Part shown: positions 1,173-31,893 of the stretch, in pieces | How the letters are laid out: each line of letters opens with the position of its first letter | Numbering within the stretch: position 1 is the stretch's first letter | Source: Fibrobacter succinogenes subsp. succinogenes S85 | GTDB lineage: Bacteria > Fibrobacterota > Fibrobacteria > Fibrobacterales > Fibrobacteraceae | Length of the DNA: 32,000 nucleotides | Direction: 5' to 3' | Assembly (NCBI RefSeq): GCF_000146505.1 | Contig: NC_017448.1 | Location: forward strand, 2,790,001-2,822,000 | The notes under the pieces: model-generated | Told to the model about the DNA's origin: nothing | What the model saw: the letters and a program-made list of their open reading frames with translations, nothing else | The model's database searches: none | Program-made: the position numbers and the translations under genes

Positions 1173-3012
1173 CGATACTTCGGAGAACGAAGCTCGAATC
1201 CGCAAAAACTGGAATGTGTTGATTTTCCTTGCGGGTACGGTCATCCTTTTTTCGGTGATTTTGTTCAAGCTTTTTTCGCTGCAGTACATCCATTACGAAG
1301 AAAACTTCCAGCGTTCCGAAAACAATCGCTTGCGCCGAATAGAGCTGATTGCTGATCGCGGCTACATTTACGATAGGAACGGGAATGTGCTGGTGCGTAA
1401 CCGTCCTTCGTACCAGATTGCGCTCCAGGCGCTTGAAATGCCGCGAAAGAAGGCGGCTAGGGATTCTATTTTCAAGAAGCTCCTGAATATCCGCGATGCG
1501 GCGGGTGTGCGTCTTTTTGATTCCCTGTCTCTTGATACGGCGTTCCAGAGGATCCGCTGGGTGCGTACGCGTCCGGTCCGCATTTTAGAAGATGCGACGA
1601 TGGAACAGGTGGCGGTGATCGAAGAGCATTCTACGGAGCTGCCGGGCGTCTCGGTGATTATCGAATCGCGTCGTGAATATCCGTATGGAACGCTTGCTTC
1701 GCATGTGCTCGGTTACACGAGTGAAATTTCGGAAGAGCAATTGAAACTTCCGGAATACGAATCTTATTCGCAAGGCGACCGTGTGGGCCAAAAGGGCTTG
1801 GAGCAGGAATACGACAAGGAGTTCCGCGGAAAAAATGGGCTCAAGCTTGTGGAAGTGAATGCGTCGGGGCGTGAGGTGAGAACTCTCCCGGATGTTGGCG
1901 GGTATATTCCTCCGGAACCGGGATTGCACATGGTCTCGACCATTGACTTGAAACTGCAAAAGGCGGCAGAAGCGGCGATTCCGGATTCGGCAAAAGGCGC
2001 TTTGGTGGCGATTGACCCGCGCAATGGCGAAATCTTGGCGATGGTCTCTTCGCCGCGACTCGACCCGAACATTTTTTCGCTGAAACGTCGCGAACGCAAT
2101 AAGGGCTGGGCTCATGTGGCTCTTGACTCCATGCGACCGCTCACGAACCGTGCGATTTCGGGCGTTTATCCGCCGGCTTCTATCTTTAAGCTTGTGACGT
2201 CTGGGGCGGGGCTTGAAAGCGGGATTATTTCGGAGACGAAGTATTACCCGAAAGCTTGTACGGGGGGCTACCAGTACGGGGCGCGTTACCAGAGGTGCTG
2301 GGGTGTACATGGGAATTTGAACGTGGTGCATGCACTCCGTCTTTCATGTGACGTGTATTTCTATCAGGCCGGTCTTGAAATCGACATGGCGCGTATCAAT
2401 GAATTTGCTCGCCGCTTTGGTTATGGTGAAAAGCTGCTCGGCATAGATATTCCAGGCGAGAAGGCGGGGTGGCTCCCGGATTCGGCCTCGTTCAACCAGC
2501 GCAACAAGCGCCTTGGCTGGCGTTGGGCTCGTGGGCTTATTTTGAACCTTTCGATTGGGCAGGGGCAGATGGTGACTCCTTTGCAGCAGGCCGTGTTTAT
2601 CGGTTCCTTGGCAACGAACAAGGGCGTGTACCGGCCGCACTTTATGAAGGAACTTCAGGACTCGCAGGGCAATGTCGTGCGCCGCTATGAACCGGAAATT
2701 ATCCGTCCGGGAACGATGAAGCCTGAGACGCACCGTGTGCTCATGAATGCGATGGATTCCGTGGTGAACCATCCAGGTGGTACTGGCAAGAAGGGCGCTG
2801 TGCCTGGAATCCGCGTAGGCGGAAAGACGGGCTCTGGCGAATGGAAAAAGGGGCAGAAGACGCATGCCTGGTTTGCAGCGGTAGCACCTCTGGATGACCC
2901 GCAAATTGCTGTGGCCGTGATTATGGAAGCGGCAGGCGGCGGTGGCTCTGTTGCGGCTCCGATTGCGCATAAGGTTCTGATGGCCTTCTTTGGGAAGGAG
3001 GAAGAAGAATGA
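1165..3012 (+). CDS. mrdA: Penicillin-binding protein 2 (elongasome transpeptidase)
   Basis: N-terminal TM anchor and transpeptidase motifs SxxK (ASIFK), SxD (LSCDVYF) and KTG (GGKTGSG). Start placed at ATG 1165 (GGAGAAG upstream, overlaps the mreD stop) rather than the ORF-track start 1123. Confidence 0.93.
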   Translation: MYNDTSENEARIRKNWNVLIFLAGTVILFSVILFKLFSLQYIHYEENFQRSENNRLRRIELIADRGYIYDRNGNVLVRNRPSYQIALQALEMPRKKAARDSIFKKLLNIRDAAGVRLFDSLSLDTAFQRIRWVRTRPVRILEDATMEQVAVIEEHSTELPGVSVIIESRREYPYGTLASHVLGYTSEISEEQLKLPEYESYSQGDRVGQKGLEQEYDKEFRGKNGLKLVEVNASGREVRTLPDVGGYIPPEPGLHMVSTIDLKLQKAAEAAIPDSAKGALVAIDPRNGEILAMVSSPRLDPNIFSLKRRERNKGWAHVALDSMRPLTNRAISGVYPPASIFKLVTSGAGLESGIISETKYYPKACTGGYQYGARYQRCWGVHGNLNVVHALRLSCDVYFYQAGLEIDMARINEFARRFGYGEKLLGIDIPGEKAGWLPDSASFNQRNKRLGWRWARGLILNLSIGQGQMVTPLQQAVFIGSLATNKGVYRPHFMKELQDSQGNVVRRYEPEIIRPGTMKPETHRVLMNAMDSVVNHPGGTGKKGAVPGIRVGGKTGSGEWKKGQKTHAWFAAVAPLDDPQIAVAVIMEAAGGGGSVAAPIAHKVLMAFFGKEEEE

Positions 3013-4256
3013 GTTCCGGCCGTTTTGTGGATAAACCCCTGAAAATTGACTGGGTCTTTATTGGTGTTACGCTCACGCTGATGACGTGTGGCGTGTTGCT
3101 TGTGTATTCGGCGACGGTCAATGAGGAAATTGCCTTTTACGATACGCACTGGTTTAGGCAGATTATCTATTTCTTGATGGGGATCGCGATTGCGGTGGGA
3201 CTTGTGTTCGTGAAGATTGACTGGCTTAAGCGTGCTGCGGTGCCGTCTTACGTGATTGCGCTTTTGATGCTCGTGTTTGTGCTCATTTTTGCGGGCGACG
3301 TGAAGGGGGCCGGGCGCTGGATTGACCTGAAGGTAATTAAGTTGCAGCCCTCGGAGTTTGCAAAGATTGCGTACCTGATTACGATTTCGTACTGGCTTTC
3401 GAAACATCCCGTGAGCTTGTATAAGCTTAAGTCGTTCCTGGTGCCTTTAGGCCTTTTCATTGTGCCGTTCTTGCTTGTGCTGAAACAGCCGGATCTGAGT
3501 ACGGCGCTTGTGTTTACTGCTGTGACGCTTGTCGGGTTCTTTTTTGCGGGGCTCACGTTTACGGATTTGTTCCTGATTGTGAGTCCGGCTTTGTCAGTAC
3601 TGTTTTCGCATTCGCAGTCCATGCAGATTCCTGTCTTGTGGGGTGCGCAGATTTGCCTTGTCGTATTCTCCGTATTGCGTAGACACTTGTCCAAGAAGCT
3701 CACGGGTGTGATTATTGCGACGAACATCTTGGCAGGTTACGCCAGCACGATGGTGTGGAATATGCTGGAACCGCACCAGCAAAAACGCGTGAACACGTTT
3801 TTGGATCCGATGAGTGACCCGCTGGGCGATGGCTATCAGGTGTTACAGTCAATCACTGCGATTGGTAGTGGTGGCATTGGAGGCAAGGGATTTGGAAACG
3901 GTTCGCAGACGAATCTCTCGTTTTTGCCCGAAGAACATACGGACTTTATCTTTAGCGTGCTTGGAGAACAGTTTGGCTTTGTCGGGTGCGCGGTGATTCT
4001 TGTGCTGTTTACTTTGTTCTTGTGGAGGGCCTCCTCGATTTGCAAGACGAACGATGACCCGTTTGTGACGCTTGTGACAATGGGCGCTGCGACAATCTTT
4101 TTGTTCCACATCACGGTGAATATCGCGATGACGATTGGGCTTATGCCGGTGACGGGGCTCCCGCTGCCGTTCCTTTCTTATGGAGGCTCGTTTGCGCTTG
4201 TGTGCTTGTTCCTCGTGGGGCTCTTGATGTGCCTCAGGTATCAGGGGAATAAGTGA
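3009..4256 (+). CDS. rodA: SEDS-family peptidoglycan polymerase RodA
   Basis: Polytopic membrane protein with SEDS hallmarks QPSEFAKIAY, PEEHTDFIFSVLGEQFGF and GLPLPFLSYGGS. ATGA overlap with the mrdA stop. Confidence 0.93.
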   Translation: MSSGRFVDKPLKIDWVFIGVTLTLMTCGVLLVYSATVNEEIAFYDTHWFRQIIYFLMGIAIAVGLVFVKIDWLKRAAVPSYVIALLMLVFVLIFAGDVKGAGRWIDLKVIKLQPSEFAKIAYLITISYWLSKHPVSLYKLKSFLVPLGLFIVPFLLVLKQPDLSTALVFTAVTLVGFFFAGLTFTDLFLIVSPALSVLFSHSQSMQIPVLWGAQICLVVFSVLRRHLSKKLTGVIIATNILAGYASTMVWNMLEPHQQKRVNTFLDPMSDPLGDGYQVLQSITAIGSGGIGGKGFGNGSQTNLSFLPEEHTDFIFSVLGEQFGFVGCAVILVLFTLFLWRASSICKTNDDPFVTLVTMGAATIFLFHITVNIAMTIGLMPVTGLPLPFLSYGGSFALVCLFLVGLLMCLRYQGNK

Positions 4257-4257
4257 T

Positions 4258-4470
4258 TAGTAGACTGTAGACAGTAGGAAGTAGACGGTAGGAAGTAGGA
4301 AGGGGACGCCGCTATGCGGCTATAGACGAGAGAACGGCTCTATGAGCCTACAGACGAAAGACGAGAAAATGGCCGAAAGCGCCCAAAGCGAAGCGACCCC
4401 ATAGCCCAGAGCGTAGCGTGCTCGGAGCGAGTTTACGAGCGTCCCCATAGCTTACAGCCTTACTTCGAAG
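4258..4470 (+). repeat. Heptanucleotide-phased intergenic array with embedded 5-bp/triloop hairpins
   Basis: TAG occurs every 7 nt at 4261, 4268, 4275, 4282, 4289 and 4296 (TAGACTG TAGACAG TAGGAAG TAGACGG TAGGAAG TAGGAAG). The register continues in degenerate form (AGACGAG 4324, AGAACGG 4331, AGACGAA 4352, AGACGAG 4359, AGCGAAG 4387, AGAGCGT 4408). Hairpins: GCCGC-TAT-GCGGC at 4308-4320 and GGCTC-TAT-GAGCC at 4336-4348. Confidence 0.85.
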
Positions 4471-4580
4471 CGTGTTGATAAAATTTTACCGTACAATTAG
4501 CCTGAAAAAAGCGTGTTATAGAGATAGGGGGCTTTCGCCCTTGGGGCGTGATTTTGCGCTGCTTTATGACTGGAGGCTTT

Positions 4581-5291
4581 ATGGGCGTTTTGAGGACGGT
4601 TGCAAATTTTGTTTTCGGGATGGAGTGCCTTGCGTGCGGGAACTCGTCAGAGAGGCTTGACCCGTGGCTCTGCCCTGCTTGTGCGGCGGAACTTTTGCGG
4701 GAATCCTGCTCTTCAAAATTCCCGAACGACGATACATTTTGTTTGTTCCCGATGCGGCCTTTGACACGAAAGCTTGTGCATGCGCTCAAGTACAGGAACA
4801 TTCCGGGGCTTGCCTCTTACCTTGTGCGACATTCTTCGGCAGTGAAGCATGGGGTGGTGGCGCAGGAACTTTCGATGCTTGCGCAGCCGCTTTACTTTGT
4901 GCCTGTGCCGCTCCATCGGGCGAGGTATCGTGAGCGCGGGTACAACCAGGCGGAACTCTTGGCGGCGGCGCTTGCGACTGCAACAGGAGGTAAGGTTTGC
5001 CGCTTGCTCAAGCGCAAGACGTTTGTGGTTTCGCAGACAAAGCTTTCAAAGGAGGAGCGAGAGATGAACGTGGCGGGGGCATTTGTGGCGGATTTCCCGA
5101 GGAAGATGCCTACGCGGGGGTGTGTTGTCGTGGTGGACGATGTTTTTACGACGGGGGCGACGACTTCGGCGTGCATGGCGGCGTTTGGACCAGATTTTCC
5201 GCTCCCCTTGAAGGTGTGTACGCTGATTTACGACGAACCTGCGACGGCTGTAGCGGATTTTGCCGCCGATTGCCGCGCCTTTTACAAATAA
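4581..5291 (+). CDS. comF: ComF-family protein (phosphoribosyltransferase-like, N-terminal zinc ribbon)
   Basis: CxxC...CxxC pairs (ECLACGN, LCPACAAE) and PRTase motif VVVVDDVFTTGATTSA. Start chosen at ATG 4581, with GGAGG 4 nt upstream. The ORF track starts at GTG 4548. Confidence 0.85.
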   Translation: MGVLRTVANFVFGMECLACGNSSERLDPWLCPACAAELLRESCSSKFPNDDTFCLFPMRPLTRKLVHALKYRNIPGLASYLVRHSSAVKHGVVAQELSMLAQPLYFVPVPLHRARYRERGYNQAELLAAALATATGGKVCRLLKRKTFVVSQTKLSKEEREMNVAGAFVADFPRKMPTRGCVVVVDDVFTTGATTSACMAAFGPDFPLPLKVCTLIYDEPATAVADFAADCRAFYK

Positions 5292-10439: not shown

Positions 10440-11002
10440 GCCACTTTGTGCTTGGAGTGACGGGTGCTAGCGGCAGCATTTATGCGACCCGTACGGCGAT
10501 GTACTTACAGCGTTTTGGTCATGAGGTAACGCTCATCGTGACGCACCCGGGCAAACAGGTCCTCGAATACGAAGACCAAAGTGCGCTTTTCGACTATTGC
10601 AAGGACGTGTGCAACGTGGATGATTTTTTTGCGGAATGCGCGAGTGGTTCTAGCGATATTGCGGGCATGGCTGTGGTGCCGTGCTCCATGGGAACGCTTG
10701 GACGTATTGCGGCGGGGACTTCGGACAACTTGCTTGTGCGCGCGGCTGATGTGTGTCTTAAGGAACGCAGGCCGCTTGTGATTGTGCCTCGCGAGATGCC
10801 GTACAACTTGATACACATCGAGAATATGAAACATGTGACCTTGGCGGGAGCGGTCGTGATTCCTGCTTCGCCGCAGTTTTACTGCAAGCCGCAAAGCGTT
10901 GAAGAGCTCGTGGATACTGTTGTCGCGAAAATCCTAAAGCACTTGGGCGTGGAACAATCGCTTGTCGCGAGTGTTGCTAAAGTATGGAGCGGTGAGCTAT
11001 GA
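10436..11002 (+). CDS. ubiX: Flavin prenyltransferase UbiX
   Basis: GVTGASGSIYA, VVPCSMGTLGRIAAGTSDNLLVRAADVCLKERRPLVIVPREMP. ATGA overlap with the ubiE stop. Confidence 0.92.
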   Translation: MSHFVLGVTGASGSIYATRTAMYLQRFGHEVTLIVTHPGKQVLEYEDQSALFDYCKDVCNVDDFFAECASGSSDIAGMAVVPCSMGTLGRIAAGTSDNLLVRAADVCLKERRPLVIVPREMPYNLIHIENMKHVTLAGAVVIPASPQFYCKPQSVEELVDTVVAKILKHLGVEQSLVASVAKVWSGEL

Positions 11003-11128
11003 GGTATGAGGTCGCGCTAAAGCGCTTTGAGCACGCTTCGCTTTGGGCTTACTGCTCCGAGGTTTTATCACTAACGATTATTGACTAAAGACTAACCACT
11101 GTCTACTTCCTGCTTCCAACTTCTTACT
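11003..11128. repeat. Heptanucleotide-phased intergenic array (18 heptads, NNNNACT register)
   Basis: Read in 7-nt steps from 11003, the last nine units are tatcACT aacgATT attgACT aaagACT aaccACT gtctACT tcctGCT tccaACT tcttACT. The array contains reverse-complement copies of modules seen at 4267-4305, 4381-4395 and 17108-17130. Confidence 0.85.
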
Positions 11129-11133
11129 AAACC

Positions 11134-12024
11134 ATGAATAAAATCCTTGAATTTACACATCTTGTCCGTTTGAGCCATTCGCTGTTTGCGATGCCTTTTG
11201 CCATTGGTTCCATGTGGGTTGCTGCAAACGGTTTCCGAGACATGAGCGCTTTTGAAACGGCCCGCATTATCGTGCTCATCGTGCTTTGCATGGTGACCGC
11301 CCGTAACAGTGCCATGAGCTTTAACCGCATTGCAGACGCCAAGTTCGATGCGGAGAATCCGCGGACGGCAAAGCGCCATTTGCCGGCAGGACGCCTGAGC
11401 CGTAAATCGGTGATGGCGTTCTTGGCGTTGAACGGAATCTTGTTTGTTGTGTTTGCGTGGATGCTCCAGCCGCTTGCAGGGGCGCTTGCGTTCCCGGTAT
11501 GGCTATTGTTGCTCTCGTATTCGTACTGGAAGCGTTTTAGCTGGCTTTGCCATTGGTTCCTTGGTTTTGCGATTGGCATGAGCCCGCTTGGCGCCTGGAT
11601 TGCCGTTCGTGGCGAATTTGCCGTGTTCCCGATTTTCCTTCTGTTCATTTTGATGCTCTGGATGGGCGGTTTTGACATCATTTACGCCACGCAGGATATT
11701 GAAATTGACCGCAAACAGGGCTTGCATTCCGTGCCCGCCCGCTTTGGCCTTGAAAAGTCCTTGCGCATTGCGCTGGCAAGCCATTTGGCAATGCTCGTGC
11801 TTTGCGTCGTGTTCGGGTTCTTCTGGAATATGGGCTGGATTTGGTGGGCGATAACGGGACTCATGACCGCTGCTATCGTCTATATTCACTTGTTCAGAAA
11901 ATCGAATGACCTAGATGCGATGAACCGCGACTTTTTCCTTGCGAATGTGGCAATTAGCGCTCTCGTGATGATAGGCCTCATCGTCTGGATTTGCATGGGA
12001 GGTGATGTCAATGAACTTTATTAA
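11134..12024 (+). CDS. UbiA-family aromatic polyprenyltransferase (4-hydroxybenzoate polyprenyltransferase-like / MqnP-like)
   Basis: Polytopic membrane protein with the two Asp-rich motifs NRIADAKFDAENPRT and YATQDIEIDRKQG. Confidence 0.88.
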   Translation: MNKILEFTHLVRLSHSLFAMPFAIGSMWVAANGFRDMSAFETARIIVLIVLCMVTARNSAMSFNRIADAKFDAENPRTAKRHLPAGRLSRKSVMAFLALNGILFVVFAWMLQPLAGALAFPVWLLLLSYSYWKRFSWLCHWFLGFAIGMSPLGAWIAVRGEFAVFPIFLLFILMLWMGGFDIIYATQDIEIDRKQGLHSVPARFGLEKSLRIALASHLAMLVLCVVFGFFWNMGWIWWAITGLMTAAIVYIHLFRKSNDLDAMNRDFFLANVAISALVMIGLIVWICMGGDVNELY

Positions 12025-12327: not shown

Positions 12328-15300
12328 TTATTGCTTTATGCAACGGATGGGTAGTCCATCAGTTTTGTCGTACAAGCGCCAGTTATTAGGGACGTAGGAG
12401 TCGCTTTTATCATTAAATATTAGCGCAACTGCGGTTGTGTCACGCGAATAGTATTTTTCTTGAATTGCGGTCCAATAGGCCGTGTTGTTTGTAGAGTACT
12501 TTATTTTATCGCGTTCTTCGGTATAGTCAATTCCGTTCCTGAAGAAGACGTTCATATAGCCTGTCGGGATGGATGAAAATCCGCAAACGTCTGTATGGGT
12601 TTCGTCGTAACCCGTGGCGTTCTTCTGGAGGTCCTCAACGTTGCACTGGGTCAAAAGTGAGTCCCAGTCTCTGCGGGTCGGGAGTCTCCATCCTTTAGGA
12701 CAAATTCCCTGAACTGAAGAGGTGTCTGCAATTACAATGGAATCGGGATGAGGATTTTTCGGAAGACCGATGGCCATATCCCAACTGTAAAGGCGTCCGT
12801 ATGTGGCACAGCCATTGTCATTATCGCCGCACCAGCTACCTGCGACTTCAAACTTTAGGTTTTCGGCCATCCATTCCTGATTGCCAATCTTGATGGTTTT
12901 ATAGCTGTTGCCGTCTCTAGAGTCCGTTATGGTAACGTAGTCTACAGGCGCTCTTCTCCAGTTCTCGTCGTAGCATTCCATGTGAAGCCCGTTGTACACG
13001 GCGACTTTGCCATCGTTCGCGAGCCCGCATTTGCCGAGGAACTGTGTGACCTTTGTTGCCGGGAGCCATCTGTAATAATTGTTTTTTGTGCCGCAATAAT
13101 AGGAGGAATCCTTGTAGGTGACCGTATCGCCGTCTAATGCTTTGCGGCAGACTCCGCCGAGGCTGTCAATCGGCTCCACAATGTGCCAGGAACTGAAACT
13201 TGATGCATAGGTAATCATCGTGTCGCAATAGAATAGCTTGTTGTTATAGCCTACGGTCATGCCTAATTTTTCGGGGAAGCTTTTACTACAGGTGCCGTAC
13301 ATCTCTTTGAACGTGTCGCTAATCCATCCACTGTATGACGTGTTGCACGCATAGTCTTTTCCGTTGTATTGTTTCCAGGTAAGTCCTGTGGCGTGGCAGA
13401 ATCCTAGAGCTTTGTCAATTTCATTTTCTTCGCGCCAATGGTATCTTTTGTTGGAGCCGACTCCCGTATAGGTGCAGCCGTAGTTCTTGCCGTTGTATTT
13501 GAAAAGACCTTCTTGCTTTTTAGGGCCGCATACACCAAGAGCTTTGTCCACGTCTGTATAAATTTGCCATGTCTGGTTGGCAGAACAATAGTATGACGTG
13601 TCTCTGTATACTTCAACTTGGCCTAGCAATGATGATGTGCATTTTTCTAGAACAATGTTGGCGGGGGCAATTTTCCAGGAGTGATCGGAACAATAGTAAT
13701 AGTTGTCTTTGTATTTATACGATGTTTTGTAGTCGTCTTTTTTGCAAACGCCCAAAGCGAGTTCTACGGAGTCCATTAATGTCCATCTCAAATTTTTACA
13801 GACGTACATTTTATTTGCGTATTCGGCAGTCTCGTAATCAATGCTTATTGTGCAGTTTCCAAGCGCCTGCGTGATGGTGAACTTTGTCCAGCCGGTGTCG
13901 CTACAAATGTAATCTACTGAATTTACCTGTCCAATTTTATCTTTAGTTCCCTTATAGCAGAGTCCTAAGGTTTTTTCAAGCGTGGTGAATTGGCGCCATT
14001 CTTCGTTGACGCAGCCGTACTTGACGGAATTATGCACTTTTTCGAATCCGTCCCTGTCGTCGTCGCATAAGCCGAGAACTTCGGATTTTGTGGCCTGTCT
14101 CCAAGTGGAATCGCAGATGTAGTCCCTGCCGGTGCTATCCGTTTTTAGTACTCCCTTGAGCTTGGGCGTGCAGAAACCGAATTCAGATGTGGGGTGCGTG
14201 AGCTTTTCCCATTTTGTGGGGCTCGTGCAGCCGTAAGTTATGCCGTTGAAATTCTTTGTCGTATAGAGCTTGGTGGAATCGCAGTTGCCGTAGTAATCGT
14301 AAATGTTTGTTGTGCGCCAGCTTATGGAATCGCAGATGTAGCTGTAACCGCTAGATTTTACGGTGTCGATTTTTCCGGAAATTTTGGGAGAACAGATGCC
14401 GAGGTTCTTTTCGGTTGTGGAGAGTGTTTCCCATTTCTTTGTTGCGCGGCAGGCGTATGTCGTACCCTTGTATTCAAGGGTCGTGTAGAACTTGGAAGCT
14501 TCGCAGTTACCGACAAAGTCAACCATGACGGTGCTGCGCCAGCCTGTGGAATCGCAGAAATAAGAACTGTAACTACTGCCACTCTTGAGAGAATCAATTT
14601 TCCCGTATCGGGTTGGCGTGCAGAATCCGATGGAATCTTCGCGGGTGCTAGCCTTGTTCCAGACGGAGTCCTTACAAATGTATTTCTTACCGTAGTTTAC
14701 CTTTTCTTCCCATTGTCTTTCCTTGGTACACTTGCCGATGGAATCTCGGAGGACCGCCTTGCGCCAACCTGTGGTGTCGCAGAAGTATTGCGTGGAATCG
14801 TACTTTGTCTTGACGGTTCCCATTTTGGCAATGCTGTCGGGAGTGCAAAGGCCGATGGCTGCTTCGGTTGTCGTGGGCTTACGCCATGTGGAATCATCGC
14901 AGATGTAGGTGCTGTCGTTGTTAATTACTTTTTTCCACTGGTTTGTGGCGGTACATTTACCGATGGAGTCTGTGAGGACAGCCTTACGCCAGCCGATAGA
15001 ATCGCAGATGTAGTCAATGGATTCCTTCTTGTTTTCGAATACGGCCATTTTCTTTAAGCTGTCGTTATTGCAGAGGCCGATGGATGATTCAATGTTTGTG
15101 GGCTTACGCCATGTGGAATCATCGCAAATGTAACTTTGTCCGTTCAGCTTTTGCACTTCCCATTGGTTTTTCTTGGTGCAGCTTGCATCAACGTCGTTCA
15201 TGGTTGCGTATTCCCAAGTGTTGTTTCTGCAAATGAACAACGTATCCTTGTAATAATGCTTATCGCCGCGTTCCGAAGAAAGGCAGGAGTTTTCGTCGTC

Positions 15301-16092
15301 TTTGACCCATTTCTTTTTATTGCAGTAGTAGTTTTTGCCCTTGCTTGCGACAAAGAAATCGTCAAGGTATTTGTATGTGGAAGAATCGCAAGTGGGGAGT
15401 TGGCTTTCTGTTTCAACAAAGTGCGACATCTTCATGCAACGCACGGCGTAATAGGCGCTGAAATTGGCTTCTTCAAAATACGCCTTCCCTTTGGAGGTCA
15501 CCTTAAAGACATCGAAATCGGATGTCATGAGGTAGGATTCTTTGCCTTGGCCCTTGCATTGAAGCTCTCCGTTGACGGTTTCGCAGGAACCGGACATTTG
15601 CGGGTCGAAACCGAAGGCAGGGTCGGTGACGCTTTTAGCGAATTTGAGCATGTATTCGTAATCGGCTTCGGACGGAATCTTGAACCCGCTAGGACATGCC
15701 TGGTCGGCATTCATGCTCTGGTACAGGCGACCATTGGATTCGCAGTTTTCGTAATCCCCGTCGTAACAGGAGCTTTTTGATACTTTGTAGTTTGCGTTTT
15801 CGGCCATCCATGTGTAAGGCCCGAATTGGATGGTCTTATAGGAGTTGCCACTTTTTACGTCAAGAATTTCGCTTTTGATGATGCTTGCTGTTCCGGTCTT
15901 GGAATTGTAATTGCTTCCTGTAATGGTGGAGTCTCTGAATTCGTCGCCACCGAGGTTGTCCTCTTCCTCATCTTCAATTGAGGGGTCCTCTGCGCTACTG
16001 CTGTTGTCATCGCCACAGGCGCCTAGATATAACGGTAAAACCAAACACGATGATAAAAATGCCTTTCGGAACGTAAATCGCGAAAAGTGCAT
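12328..16092 (-). CDS. Giant lipoprotein: FISUMP domain, about 22 two-Cys repeats, second FISUMP domain
   Basis: Lipobox LYLGAC. N-terminal domain GNSYKTIQFGPYTWMAEN...NGRLY...CPSGFKIPSEADYEYM...AVRCMK. C-terminal domain DSRDGNSYKTIKIGNQEWMAENL...YGRLYSW...CPKGWRLPTRRDWDSL...LPIRCIKQ (TIGR02145-type signature). AGGAGG lies 4 nt upstream of the ATG. Confidence 0.9.
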   Translation of the reverse strand: MHFSRFTFRKAFLSSCLVLPLYLGACGDDNSSSAEDPSIEDEEEDNLGGDEFRDSTITGSNYNSKTGTASIIKSEILDVKSGNSYKTIQFGPYTWMAENANYKVSKSSCYDGDYENCESNGRLYQSMNADQACPSGFKIPSEADYEYMLKFAKSVTDPAFGFDPQMSGSCETVNGELQCKGQGKESYLMTSDFDVFKVTSKGKAYFEEANFSAYYAVRCMKMSHFVETESQLPTCDSSTYKYLDDFFVASKGKNYYCNKKKWVKDDENSCLSSERGDKHYYKDTLFICRNNTWEYATMNDVDASCTKKNQWEVQKLNGQSYICDDSTWRKPTNIESSIGLCNNDSLKKMAVFENKKESIDYICDSIGWRKAVLTDSIGKCTATNQWKKVINNDSTYICDDSTWRKPTTTEAAIGLCTPDSIAKMGTVKTKYDSTQYFCDTTGWRKAVLRDSIGKCTKERQWEEKVNYGKKYICKDSVWNKASTREDSIGFCTPTRYGKIDSLKSGSSYSSYFCDSTGWRSTVMVDFVGNCEASKFYTTLEYKGTTYACRATKKWETLSTTEKNLGICSPKISGKIDTVKSSGYSYICDSISWRTTNIYDYYGNCDSTKLYTTKNFNGITYGCTSPTKWEKLTHPTSEFGFCTPKLKGVLKTDSTGRDYICDSTWRQATKSEVLGLCDDDRDGFEKVHNSVKYGCVNEEWRQFTTLEKTLGLCYKGTKDKIGQVNSVDYICSDTGWTKFTITQALGNCTISIDYETAEYANKMYVCKNLRWTLMDSVELALGVCKKDDYKTSYKYKDNYYYCSDHSWKIAPANIVLEKCTSSLLGQVEVYRDTSYYCSANQTWQIYTDVDKALGVCGPKKQEGLFKYNGKNYGCTYTGVGSNKRYHWREENEIDKALGFCHATGLTWKQYNGKDYACNTSYSGWISDTFKEMYGTCSKSFPEKLGMTVGYNNKLFYCDTMITYASSFSSWHIVEPIDSLGGVCRKALDGDTVTYKDSSYYCGTKNNYYRWLPATKVTQFLGKCGLANDGKVAVYNGLHMECYDENWRRAPVDYVTITDSRDGNSYKTIKIGNQEWMAENLKFEVAGSWCGDNDNGCATYGRLYSWDMAIGLPKNPHPDSIVIADTSSVQGICPKGWRLPTRRDWDSLLTQCNVEDLQKNATGYDETHTDVCGFSSIPTGYMNVFFRNGIDYTEERDKIKYSTNNTAYWTAIQEKYYSRDTTAVALIFNDKSDSYVPNNWRLYDKTDGLPIRCIKQ
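12952..15330 (-). repeat. Coding tandem array of about 22 units (35-45 aa each)
   Basis: Unit pattern is G-x-C...Y-x-C-x(3-5)-W...(I/L)-G-x-C. The Y-x-C...W motif was counted 22 times in the translation, from NYYCNKKKW through SYICDDSTW, DYICDSIGW and others to HMECYDENW. The first units alternate two subtypes, giving a 75-aa super-repeat. Confidence 0.85.
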
Positions 16093-17103: not shown

Positions 17104-17213
17104 TTACTTAGTCGTTAGTCAATGGTCGTTTGTTGCCTTTGACGTAATTCTATCACGATTATTCTTCTCTAGTCTTTCGTCTGTAGCCACGTAGTGGCGT
17201 TCTTTCGTCTAAC
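17104..17213. repeat. Heptanucleotide-phased intergenic array (15 heptads) including one hairpin/AGACG element
   Basis: In 7-nt steps from 17109: TAGTCGT TAGTCAA TGGTCGT TTGTTGC ... GTCTTTC GTCTGTA GCCACGT AGTGGCG TTCTTTC GTCTAAC. The register is kept across the whole spacer. Confidence 0.85.
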
Positions 17214-17639
17214 TTACTCGTCAGCTTGCTTTTCTTGGAGTTCCTTGAGTGCTTCTTCTGGGAAAATGTTGAAGAATTCCTGCTTCTTGTCCTCGAAAAG
17301 CTGCAACATGCGTTCCTGCTCAAACTGCTCGCGGTCAATGTTCTGCATAAAGAACTCGTCCTTGGCAAAGTTGCGGCTTTGGATAGTCTTCTTGATATCT
17401 TCGGACAGGTCTACGTTATCCCAAAGAATGTAGTACGAACCGACAAATCCATCTGCAAAAATGTCAACGTTCAATTTGACCGAGTTACTTTGCGTTGAAT
17501 CAACCATTTCGACTTTGGTTTCGCGCTTTTCGGGGCGGAATACGTCAACGTCGTTTACAGGTTTGGACAAATCCTGAGCCCAGCAAAATGCTGTTGCACA
17601 TAGAAAGAACATTACCTTATGCTTGAACGACAAAATCAT
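17214..17639 (-). CDS. Secreted acidic hypothetical protein (141 aa)
   Basis: Signal-peptide-like N-terminus MILSFKHKVMFFLCATAFCWAQD when started at ATG 17639. The longer ORF-track start (17795) would run through the repeat element and the tsaD stop region. Confidence 0.6.
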   Translation of the reverse strand: MILSFKHKVMFFLCATAFCWAQDLSKPVNDVDVFRPEKRETKVEMVDSTQSNSVKLNVDIFADGFVGSYYILWDNVDLSEDIKKTIQSRNFAKDEFFMQNIDREQFEQERMLQLFEDKKQEFFNIFPEEALKELQEKQADE

Positions 17640-17782
17640 ATTTACAATATACAATGAAAAATGTCGAAAAATATGGAGGATGTAAAAAAGCTTGGCTGAA
17701 AATACACCAAAAAAGCGCCATGATGGTATGTGACGTACCGATATTCTGCGAAGTGTATTATATGCGCGGATTTCTCGCCCTG

Positions 17783-17816
17783 CGTCTGTAGCCACGTAAT
17801 GGCGTTCTCTCGTCTA
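17783..17816 (-). repeat. Hairpin/AGACG element copy abutting the tsaD stop
   Basis: Minus strand reads TAGACGAGAGAAC GCCAT-TAC-GTGGC TACAGACG. The first TAG is the tsaD stop codon. Confidence 0.8.
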
Positions 17817-18821
17817 AAGAGCGAGCGGCATCCACGGCTTCACAACGTCGATAGACTCGAGCTTGCCCTGCAACTTGCGGCGGATGGCCGCTGCGGCAAT
17901 CATTGCTCCGTTGTCCGTACTCAGGCTGCGGTCCGGCACGCAGAAGCGGATACCTTTCTTATCGCAGTAGTCCTGCAAGCGGGTGCGCAACCAGCTGTTT
18001 GCACTCACGCCACCGCCCATCACGAGCGTCTTCATCTTCGTCTTCTTGAGGGCGTTGATGGTCTTTGTGACAAGGCTATCGACAATCGCGTCTTCAAGCG
18101 AGGCGCAGATATCGCCGAGGTTCTGCTGGATAAATTCCGGGTCGTGCGTTTCGGTATAACGGAGCACGGCGGTCTTTAATCCACTGAACGAAAATTCGCA
18201 GCTGTCGTGCGTGTGAAGTGCGCGTGGAAATTCCACGAATTTGCGGTTGTGGTCCTTGCCGAGGCGGCTAATCGTTGCACCTGCGGGGTACTTGAGGCCA
18301 ATGAGCTTACCGCACTTGTCGAATGCTTCGCCGGCAGCATCATCGCGGGTGCGACCGATGCTTGTGTACTTGAATCCCGGTTCTTCCATCACAAGTTCTG
18401 TGTGTCCGCCTGAGACGGTAAGCGTCAAAAATGGCGGTTCAATGTCCGGGTTAGAGAGCCAGGCAGCGGCGAGGTGGCCTTCGAGATGGTTCATGCCGTA
18501 AGCCGGAATGTTCAAATCGCGGGCGAGGCCTTTGGCAAAGCTTGCACCAACGAGGAGCGGTCCCATGAGGCCCGGGCCAGTGGTGTAGGCGATGGCGTCA
18601 ATGTCCTTGAGCTCAACGCCCGCTTCCTTGACGGCGGCTTCGGCGATGGGGGCAATCTTTTGCAAATGCGCACGGGCGGCGATTTCGGGAACAACGCCAC
18701 CGTAGAGGGCATGTTCGTCAATTTGGCTGTAAAGTGGATTCGAAAGAACTTTGAGTGGGTCGTCCTGCAAAACAGCACATGCTGTTTCGTCGCAGCTGGA
18801 TTCAATTCCAAGCCAAATCAT
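17814..18821 (-). CDS. tsaD: tRNA N6-adenosine threonylcarbamoyltransferase TsaD
   Basis: GIESSCDETA, HLEGHL, VSGGHTEL, GGGVSAN. ATGA overlap with the upstream ybbR-like gene. Confidence 0.93.
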   Translation of the reverse strand: MIWLGIESSCDETACAVLQDDPLKVLSNPLYSQIDEHALYGGVVPEIAARAHLQKIAPIAEAAVKEAGVELKDIDAIAYTTGPGLMGPLLVGASFAKGLARDLNIPAYGMNHLEGHLAAAWLSNPDIEPPFLTLTVSGGHTELVMEEPGFKYTSIGRTRDDAAGEAFDKCGKLIGLKYPAGATISRLGKDHNRKFVEFPRALHTHDSCEFSFSGLKTAVLRYTETHDPEFIQQNLGDICASLEDAIVDSLVTKTINALKKTKMKTLVMGGGVSANSWLRTRLQDYCDKKGIRFCVPDRSLSTDNGAMIAAAAIRRKLQGKLESIDVVKPWMPLAL

Positions 18822-27270: not shown

Positions 27271-27370
27271 TTAGGTATGGGGTATGGGCTCGGCACTTCG
27301 TGCCTTTGAGGTATGGGCTATTACCCCAAAGCGAAGCGACCTCATACCCCAAAGCACCGTAGGTGCGCGC
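27271..27370. repeat. Composite palindromic intergenic element built from heptad modules
   Basis: GGTATGG GGTATGG in tandem (27274-27287). Hairpins GGCAC-TTC-GTGCC (27292-27304) and GCACC-GTA-GGTGC (27354-27366). Arms 27292-27318 and 27338-27366 are inverted copies. 27323-27357 matches 4380-4414 at 28 of 35 positions, heptad for heptad. Confidence 0.75.
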
Positions 27371-31844: not shown

Positions 31845-31893
31845 CCCCACTTCCTACCGCCTACTTCCTACTGTCTACTTTGGTTACCTCAGT
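31845..31893. repeat. Heptanucleotide-phased array (NNNNACT register), inverted copy of 4267-4305
   Basis: ccccACT tcctACC gcctACT tcctACT gtctACT ttggtta cctcAGT. The reverse complement of 31845-31878 matches 4267-4305 at 33 of 34 aligned positions, apart from one missing TAGGAAG-type unit. Confidence 0.8.

Follow-up and report, generated by a model that had tools for sequence, protein, structure and literature searches.

Heptanucleotide repeats are reported to be the most abundant class of long simple sequence repeats (SSRs) in most prokaryotic genomes, and a link to polymerase slippage has been proposed (Mrazek 2007, as cited in PMC4679880 and PMC4692102). Described members of the class include the short tandemly repeated repetitive (STRR) sequences of Calothrix (CCCCAGT, TTGGTCA and CAACAGT), the GGGAATC/GGGGAYT repeats of Xanthomonas and Nostoc, and the TAACTGA arrays found in Beggiatoaceae, cyanobacteria and Bacteroidetes, none of which has an established function (PMC4679880; PMC4692102). 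The subject of this report is an array of heptamers that lies immediately downstream of rodA, in the spacer that separates this gene from comF, in the cellulose degrader Fibrobacter succinogenes S85. It was analysed within a stretch of 32,000 nt of genomic DNA, hereafter the window (CP001792.1:2343272-2375271), in which RodA and TsaD are encoded exactly and which is identical to the S85 locus L122 across the whole spacer. We consider it probable that the array, at positions 4258-4302 of the window, is a (GTAGNNN)n heptanucleotide microsatellite, or variable-number tandem repeat (VNTR), which forms the 5′ arm of a composite intergenic repeat cluster and belongs to a period-7 system found throughout the clade.

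The original prediction, made from the letters of the window alone, had read six in-phase heptamers after the rodA stop codon (TGA at 4254-4256), with TAG triplets at 4258, 4261, 4268, 4275, 4282, 4289 and 4296, and all these units and positions were confirmed on the sequence. The array is G/A-rich and C-poor (17 A, 3 C, 17 G and 8 T) and is genuinely tandem, since TRF, with scores of 38-67, detects periods of 7, 14 and 21 nt in it, while identity at these lags is 0.71, 0.74 and 0.83, with z = 4.8, 4.6 and 5.0 against dinucleotide shuffles. A scan of the window for periods 4-12, in which every period was held to the same stringency (binomial tail < 1e-6), returned period-7 arrays only at 4267-4302, 11083-11117 and 31845-31881, all of them intergenic. 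The word GTAGGAAGTAG, with up to two mismatches, has 13 occurrences over the window, where 3.6 +/- 1.9 would be expected, and none of 100 shuffles reached this number.

The rodA array thus displays every defining feature of the heptanucleotide long-SSR class, i.e. tandem 7-nt units that are mostly intergenic, heterogeneous within an array and variable in length between close relatives at one site, which makes the analogy with STRR repeats drawn at the outset a comparison with the right class. As in Xanthomonas, where some heptamers occur as inverted pairs (PMC4692102), arrays in Fibrobacter can be accompanied by an inverted partner. They differ from the known heptamer SSRs in their lineage (Fibrobacterota), in their units (GTAGRNR, AGACGAR, AGTGGTT and others), in the absence of G-quadruplexes, in being interleaved in phase with a covarying 13-nt hairpin to give a 28-nt unit, and in a 5′-G-rich…C-rich-3′ polarity that the available text of the earlier descriptions does not mention; unlike TAACTGA, they do not precede start codons. 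The expectation that nothing of the kind was on record for Fibrobacter was borne out, as array strings gave no full-text match, neither the genome paper of S85 nor its Text S8 speaks of intergenic repeats and no Fibrobacter-specific repeat literature was found. The repeat system of the F. succinogenes clade is undescribed; the heptamer class itself is already known.

Slippage-type behaviour is indicated by comparison of orthologous spacers because strains with identical RodA differ by whole units. Ten contigs encode a RodA identical to that of the window, and six units are present in six of them (the S85-type L122, L125 and L130 and the metagenome contigs L121, L126 and L129), four units in three and three units in one; these alleles differ by exactly 14 and 21 nt, the remainder of the spacer showing a few single-nucleotide polymorphisms. 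Further away, in L131 (RodA 94%), the stop codon is directly followed by another array (TTAGTTA TTGGTTG TTGGTCA TTAGTCA TTAGTTG, at 3749-3785 of L131), with neither of the dispersed modules B and C that are described below. One of its units, TTGGTCA, is what we take to be the STRR2 unit of Calothrix. Three GTAGGCR units plus module B (hairpin GGCGC/GCGCC) are found in L132 and L134 (RodA 90%) and are both missing from L133, which has the same RodA, while L136 and L137 differ from L135 (RodA 89%) by a 28-nt indel that takes out precisely one hairpin unit flanked by direct repeats of TAGACGA; RodA is identical in L135 and L136 despite this 28-nt (4 x 7) change. In Fibrobacter species at 76-77% RodA identity, the spacer is only ~104 nt long and has no arrays. 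Taken with the differing arrays of closer relatives, this means that the ancestral spacer was short and was filled repeatedly, lineage by lineage. At two other loci of the window, a search for further alleles returned only contigs identical to S85 (mostly public runs, apparently of S85 itself).

The locus is not isolated. An excess of period 7 in intergenic DNA, on which the original prediction had staked its case, proved to be strong in 931 kb of metagenomic Fibrobacter DNA, a sample drawn from around module B loci (L142-L261), with seeds masked by +/-200 nt. In this DNA there are 65 period-7 arrays, compared with 2, 0, 1, 1, 1 and 3 at periods 4, 5, 6, 8, 10 and 11; the 16 and 10 arrays at periods 9 and 12 are almost all within open reading frames (ORFs). 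The unit families are diverse (AGTGGTT, AGACGAR, GTAGGAA, CTAGTAA, TCAGGTT and others) and are often joined in phase inside one array. Further copies of the words seen at rodA, which had also been called for, are abundant, GTAGGAAGTAG occurring 46 times in Fibrobacter DNA where 0.5 are expected, with 41 of the 46 outside called ORFs. Arrays of at least four in-phase TAGNNNN units number 46 in 985 kb, against ~0.1 by chance (our estimate, from (1/64)^4), and all but one are outside ORFs. They are seen in either orientation and in spacers of all classes, housekeeping ones included. That the rodA array places stop codons in all three frames, a point stressed originally, is correct and not special, since any perfect heptamer array with one stop triplet per unit does so; the property is seen in 47 of the 65 period-7 arrays, versus 43.7 +/- 3.9 when perfect heptamer arrays of matching composition are generated at random. 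Selection for three-frame stops was hence rejected, and they are an arithmetic by-product.

According to the reading that we favour, the array would grow and shrink in 7-nt steps, most likely via replication slippage or template switching, and the cluster of which it is part (the heptamer array, two 28-nt units, one more dispersed module and, for 3′ arm, the decayed complement of an array) would have filled what was at first a gap of ~100 nt separating rodA from the comF promoter. The F. succinogenes clade would possess a whole system of such arrays, with many unit families, a common period of 7 and confinement to intergenic DNA, and the period itself would reflect a mutational preference for 7-nt slippage. 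The array would probably be without sequence-specific role. It had been suggested, on the contrary, that the repeated GGA words might form a CsrA/Rsm-type binding array, or that three units, which equal 21 nt, might offer a phased surface to a protein. GGA is indeed present in the TAGGAAG units, as it is repeated in CsrB, RsmY and RsmZ, but half of the units (TAGACNG) are without it and the orthologous array of L131 has none at all, which makes it dispensable, and it stands outside hairpin loops. There is no CsrB/Rsm-like Rfam match at E <= 1, nor a dedicated promoter or terminator. Moreover, copy number is polymorphic among near-identical strains, arrays lie in either orientation with respect to genes, whatever the class of spacer, and many unrelated heptamers coexist that have only their period in common. 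A multivalent binding array, whether a CsrA/Rsm-type sponge or a phased surface for a nucleoid protein, is thus very improbable. Hardly any more credence can be given to a phase-variation switch, in which 7-nt steps would toggle the expression of comF or rodA. SSRs in promoters or 5′ untranslated regions can drive phase variation (PMC4679880) and copy number does differ between strains, but the array lies ~210 nt upstream of a -10-like block and past the rodA stop codon, so that neither promoter spacing nor frame is changed, independent S85 sequencing runs show an identical array, and arrays are spread over housekeeping spacers.

The array occupies only the beginning of the spacer. Although a length of about 210 nt had been given originally, the rodA-comF spacer extends over 324 nt (4257-4580), from the rodA gene (ORF 3009-4256, whose product matches TIGR02210 with 396 bits) to the ATG at 4581 of a gene encoding a ComF-family protein (E = 4e-19), which is preceded by a GGAGG ribosome-binding site at 4573-4577. 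The repeat region makes up the first two thirds and is a mosaic of separate dispersed modules that reappear in other spacers of the window (Table 1). It was proposed that the 7-nt register persists in degenerate form for about 170 nt after the array; over 4303-4470, weak signals were found for lag 7 (z = 2.8) and for lag 28 (z = 3.3), with none at lags 14 and 21, because AGACGAR heptamers flank two 13-nt hairpins that form a 28-nt unit (4308-4369). The lag-7 signal is not significant past 4381 (z = 1.9 for 4381-4470), and the region is a mosaic rather than one long array. Beyond module C, GCCCAAAGCGAAGCGACCCCATAGCCC, the tract ATAGCTTACAGCCTTACTTCGAA is a decayed complement of the heptamer array, which gives the whole region the aspect of a loose palindrome.

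Table 1. Repeat modules and flanking signals of the rodA-comF spacer, and related features elsewhere in the window.
Positions	Strand	Feature	Evidence or remarks
4258-4302	+	Heptamer array (TAG)TAGACTG TAGACAG TAGGAAG TAGACGG TAGGAAG TAGGAAG, 5′ arm of the composite	
4302-4309	+	GGGGACGC, left arm of a long-range inverted repeat, partner GCGTCCCC at 4439-4446	Read from the sequence; paired in the minimum-free-energy fold
4308-4320	+	First 13-nt hairpin, GCCGC-TAT-GCGGC, then TATAGACGA	Identical hairpin in 3 metagenome module copies
4323-4369	+	Module B: TAGACGAGAGAAC, hairpin GGCTC-TAT-GAGCC (4336-4348), TACAGACGAAAGACGAGAAAA; 28-nt unit with AGACGAR flanks	
4381-4412	+	Module C, GCCCAAAGCGAAGCGACCCCATAGCCCAGAGC	Other copies at 27325-27355 (+, 90%) and 11024-11048 (-, 84%)
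4439-4469	+	3′ arm: GCGTCCCC, then decayed pyrimidine-rich inverted array ATAGCTTACAGCCTTACTTCGAA; pairs with GAAGUAGG..GGGGACGC	Fold support modest
4483-4525	+	Block conserved in relatives of the F. succinogenes clade, with extended -10-like TGTTATAGA at 4514-4522	Alignment of orthologous spacers; outside the repeats
4536-4557	+	GC hairpin and T-run just 5′ of the comF ribosome-binding site	Relatives carry different stems there
31845-31881	-	Second array of GTAG type, minus-strand reading GTAGACA GTAGGAA GTAGGCG GTAGGAA; situated at its spacer's 3′ edge	
11083-11130	-	Third GTAG-type array, degenerate, abutting the ubiA start at 11134	
10993-11012	+	TGAGGTA x 2.9 array, spanning the stop codon of ubiX (11000-11002)	
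17165-17211	-	Module B copy, hairpin GCCAC-TAC-GTGGC	Starts 2 nt past the stop of the minus-strand gene 17214-17639
17771-17819	-	Module B copy, hairpin GCCAT-TAC-GTGGC	Its first TAG, 17816-17814, serves tsaD as stop codon
27274-27355	+	GGTATGG array, GGCAC-TTC-GTGCC hairpin, module C copy and complementary CCTCATACCCC	Between convergent genes

No known element accounts for the repeat region, as had been stated from the outset. Rfam gave no match in 4200-4600 at E <= 1, and only four tRNAs in the whole window at gathering threshold; no sigma-70-like promoter or terminator was found inside the repeats, and the sole candidate for an intrinsic terminator (a GC stem-loop with a U-tract) lies 3′ of them at 4536-4557, none being present in 4257-4535. 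The stems at this last site vary among relatives (GGCGC/GCGCC, GAGGC/GCCTC and GGGAC/GTCCC). The conserved block at 4483-4525 is the presumed comF promoter, and 4483-4557 as a whole probably corresponds to the comF promoter and leader, or else to the terminator of the mre-rodA operon. A structured RNA spanning the whole spacer was considered and dropped, the predicted fold of 4254-4475 (-66.9 kcal/mol) being just modestly more stable than shuffles on both strands (z = -1.74 for plus and -1.20 for minus). An ORF of 42 aa on the minus strand (4320-4448) was judged spurious, the region being missing from close relatives.

Module B is the most informative companion of the heptamers. It is made of TAGACGA-R-AGAAC, a 13-nt hairpin and TAYAGACGARAGACGAG, amounting to 28 nt or four heptads, and the rodA spacer contains two tandem copies with hairpins at 4308-4320 and 4336-4348. 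A search of rumen metagenomes with the flanks as pattern and the central 13 bases left free returned at least 120 stretches (L142-L261), and the counts given here for module B refer to the matches listed. The 126 unique copies have 58 different central sequences, and 113 copies form a perfect hairpin with a 5-bp stem and a 3-nt loop, as compared with 0.3% by chance. Pairing involves 97.6% of the stem cells of 74 distinct sequences versus 66% in shuffles, and double changes affect 100 stem cells versus 32, neither value being reached in any of 500 shuffles. The module is closely tied to the ends of genes. In 55 of the 70 copies with a co-oriented upstream ORF, it starts within 6 nt of the stop codon, its own TAG is the stop codon in 26 of these (tsaD in the window is one such case), and it is biased to the sense orientation (58 versus 21). 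A canonical terminator is found 3′ of the module in some copies (seen by eye, with no count), which places the module there inside the 3′ untranslated region, as something distinct from the terminator. Mismatches in the stems, G-T compared with A-C, gave no strand signal (3 versus ~6). We infer that module B may be a stem-loop akin to repetitive extragenic palindromes (REPs) that acts, in transcripts or in single-stranded DNA, at the 3′ ends of genes.

Two other repeats were noticed around these loci. Just 3′ of module B, at several unrelated loci (L152, L168, L171, L177, L180, L187, L198 and L207), AGACGA arrays contain an insert of ~80 nt, ACAAATGC...GCATTTGG(G/T)ACTTGT, which looks like a small mobile element that targets such arrays. 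A dispersed palindromic family that starts with (C)GTCATCCTGAG/GTCATCCTGGAG and ends with ...GAAGGATC/TAGGATCC is found in L132-L134 (~3790-4060), L155, L172, L196, L200 and L213; it holds a CGTC motif reminiscent of the CGTC-tagged REPs reported for Bacteroidetes and Chlorobi.

The kinship of module B with REPs raises the possibility that the entire system is mobile DNA of the type of REPs, bacterial interspersed mosaic elements (BIMEs) and REPINs, the arrays and GTAG-tagged hairpins being substrates or products of an HUH tyrosine nuclease resembling REP-associated tyrosine transposases (RAYTs) and acting on single-stranded DNA. Pairs of the form 5′-(GTAGNNN)n...(NNNCTAC)n-3′ would then represent REP dimers joined head to head, GTAG being outermost. 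Among the 74 distinct copies of module B, the reverse strand has GTAG before the stem in 59 and ATAG in 15 (our count), the last G of the tag being the first base of the stem and the position of the tag having been left free in the search pattern; for the second hairpin of the rodA spacer, GTAG is read on the minus strand from 4351 to 4348. Like GTAG REPs, module B is a high-copy extragenic element that forms mosaics downstream of ORFs, has a short GC stem with, here, a 3-nt loop, falls into subfamilies with alternative complementary stems (PMC3733652), occurs in inverted pairs with GTAG outside and varies in abundance between strains, being present or absent among strains with identical RodA. 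GTAG arrays are, in addition, found in phyla known to host GTAG REPs or TIRYTs, and the polarity described below agrees with dimers of this build. However, its palindrome of 13 nt and stem of 5 bp, which is at the lower limit for REPs, compare with 20-40 nt and stems of mostly 6-13 bp for GTAG REPs (Di Nocera 2013, PMC3733652), its hairpin is embedded in heptamer arrays that are not themselves palindromes, and the strand bearing GTAG is rich in purines in the case of the arrays and in pyrimidines in that of module B. No RAYT was found by tblastn with E. coli RayT in 1.98 Mb of loci (best E = 0.11), weak matches in L005 (a regulator-like gene, GntR-like by eye) and L095 (no meaningful ORF) looking spurious, and the S85 genome paper lists four weak insertion sequence matches (IS4-like and IS91-like) with no IS200/RAYT. 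Besides, indels that are multiples of 7 between direct repeats fit slippage better than transposition, and the insertion in L132/L172 resembles a segmental duplication flanked by an 18-nt direct repeat. An origin of the whole system in RAYT-like mobility seems, on balance, unlikely.

Pneumococcal BOX and enterobacterial RU/ERIC elements share with the Fibrobacter clusters their reusable intergenic blocks and an overall dyad symmetry, but the latter vary in 7- and 28-nt steps. Miniature inverted-repeat transposable elements (MITEs) have a defined unit bounded by terminal inverted repeats and a target-site duplication; no such full-length unit was recovered here, what recurs in the window being sub-modules only, and the arms are weakly complementary.

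Several observations speak against the reading that we favour. At Fibrobacter loci, purine-rich arrays (on the plus strand) are at the left edge of the spacer in 17 of 18 cases and pyrimidine-rich ones at the right edge in 8 of 9, a bias (25/27, p = 6e-6) that is observed in all four gene-orientation classes, whereas pure neutrality predicts no positional constraint. Along the TAG strand, 51 of 62 TAG arrays are in the 5′ half of their spacer (27/34 and 24/28 in the two sets). Inverted partners are similarly one-sided: module B has one downstream in 33 of 113 listed copies and upstream in none, and Fibrobacter TAG arrays have 16 downstream versus 2 upstream. The same is true well outside Fibrobacter. 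The pattern GTAGNNNGTAGGAAGTAGNNNGTAG was searched in species-representative genomes and found in at least 120 stretches (L001-L120), against ~4 by chance (our estimate, for 19 specified bases in 596 Gb). Among the matches listed, 31 stretches are from Fibrobacter or related Fibrobacterota, judging by record titles, and the others are from Cyanobacteria, Acidobacteriota, Chloroflexota, Verrucomicrobiota, Clostridia, Bacteroidota, Campylobacterota, Gammaproteobacteria, the candidate phyla radiation and others. At the non-Fibrobacter loci listed, a complementary array (>=12/14 bases) lies within 300 nt downstream of 61 of 123 arrays and upstream of 2, and 67 of 96 arrays are in the 5′ half of the spacer. 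Other reservations are closer to the locus itself: slippage is deduced from the pattern of indels, the identity of the array in independent S85 runs means that it is not hypermutable on laboratory time scales, and the presence in L131, at this very site, of another heptamer array might be due to selection for having one and not to a mutational hot spot. Module B and the polarity both suggest constraints left unexplained by pure neutrality.

Restated in the sense of the mRNA, the polarity means that G-rich, C-poor arrays follow stop codons and C-rich, G-poor arrays precede start codons, and all arrays and module B copies of the window that were checked conform to it. Genes were called as the longest ORF, and over-extended starts may inflate the cases on the start-codon side, those at stop codons (10/10) being unaffected. 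Such an arrangement may correspond to the arms of a hairpin, to REP-like dimers with GTAG outside or to C-rich tracts, resembling Rho utilization (rut) sites, that face incoming transcription. The first and last of these possibilities underlie a further alternative, namely that the repeats are an RNA 3′-end or insulator element in which the G-rich array and its C-rich complement form a long expandable stem that stabilizes 3′ ends or terminates transcription, or in which the C-rich arm serves as a Rho-loading tract. The placement of module B 0-6 nt past stop codons, its sense bias, the exclusively downstream position of its inverted partners and the long-range pairing of the two arms in the predicted fold of the spacer are in accord with this scenario. 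REPs within ~15 nt of a stop codon reportedly affect translation in E. coli, a finding ascribed to Liang, Rudd and Deutscher in 2015. Yet the fold is only modestly more stable than shuffles, as mentioned above, the 3′ arm is decayed in S85, the stem mismatches of module B carry no strand signal, copy number and unit sequence vary freely, and the start-side cases are subject to the caveat on ORF calling. By a strict hairpin-plus-T rule, moreover, a canonical terminator is present between paired inverted arrays in only 5 of 77 cases. We regard a function at the RNA level as a tentative alternative, rather unlikely as the explanation of the array.

A bolder proposal would extend these ideas to all phyla concerned. 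Instead of being neutral microsatellites, period-7 arrays would constitute a polarity-constrained intergenic architecture, 5′-(GTAGNNN)n - core - (NNNCTAC)n-3′, whose G-rich/C-poor arm would follow stop codons and whose C-rich/G-poor arm would precede the next gene, in which slippage would tune the length of the arms and which would serve as expandable hairpin arms or Rho-loading insulators, perhaps derived from a GTAG-specific HUH nuclease; we hold this to be doubtful. Examples of such cross-phylum arrays are found in L005 (4427), L007 (1838/1963), L032 (1108) and L097, with ~50-60 nt between partners. In L005 and L020, both from one metagenome-assembled genome of Clostridia (RGIG3310), and in L033, L096 and L108, inverted (GTAGGAG)n arrays, which are rich in the Shine-Dalgarno-like GGAGG, flank a core of ~60 nt. 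The occurrence of this core at two loci of RGIG3310 suggests a MITE-like family. Unrelated to these arrays, an ORF of 1254 aa on the minus strand of the window (12328-16092) has several internal DNA repeat families (D1-D5) spaced by ~105-225 nt and presumably encodes a repetitive surface protein.

The commonest class of long SSR reported in bacteria is still without an established function or mechanism, and F. succinogenes, a cultivable cellulose degrader of the rumen with dense and varied arrays, has properties that make it useful in this respect: natural 7-nt alleles at a housekeeping locus, an in-phase 28-nt unit with a covarying hairpin at stop codons, and a polarity rule that holds for GTAG arrays in other phyla as well. 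Why the period is 7, whether the repeats act as RNA or as DNA and how they are related to REP elements are questions that can be put to the test in Fibrobacter. More practically, the repeats are a source of annotation errors, as they contribute stop codons and start codons can be over-extended through arrays, and they provide VNTR markers for the typing of Fibrobacter strains.

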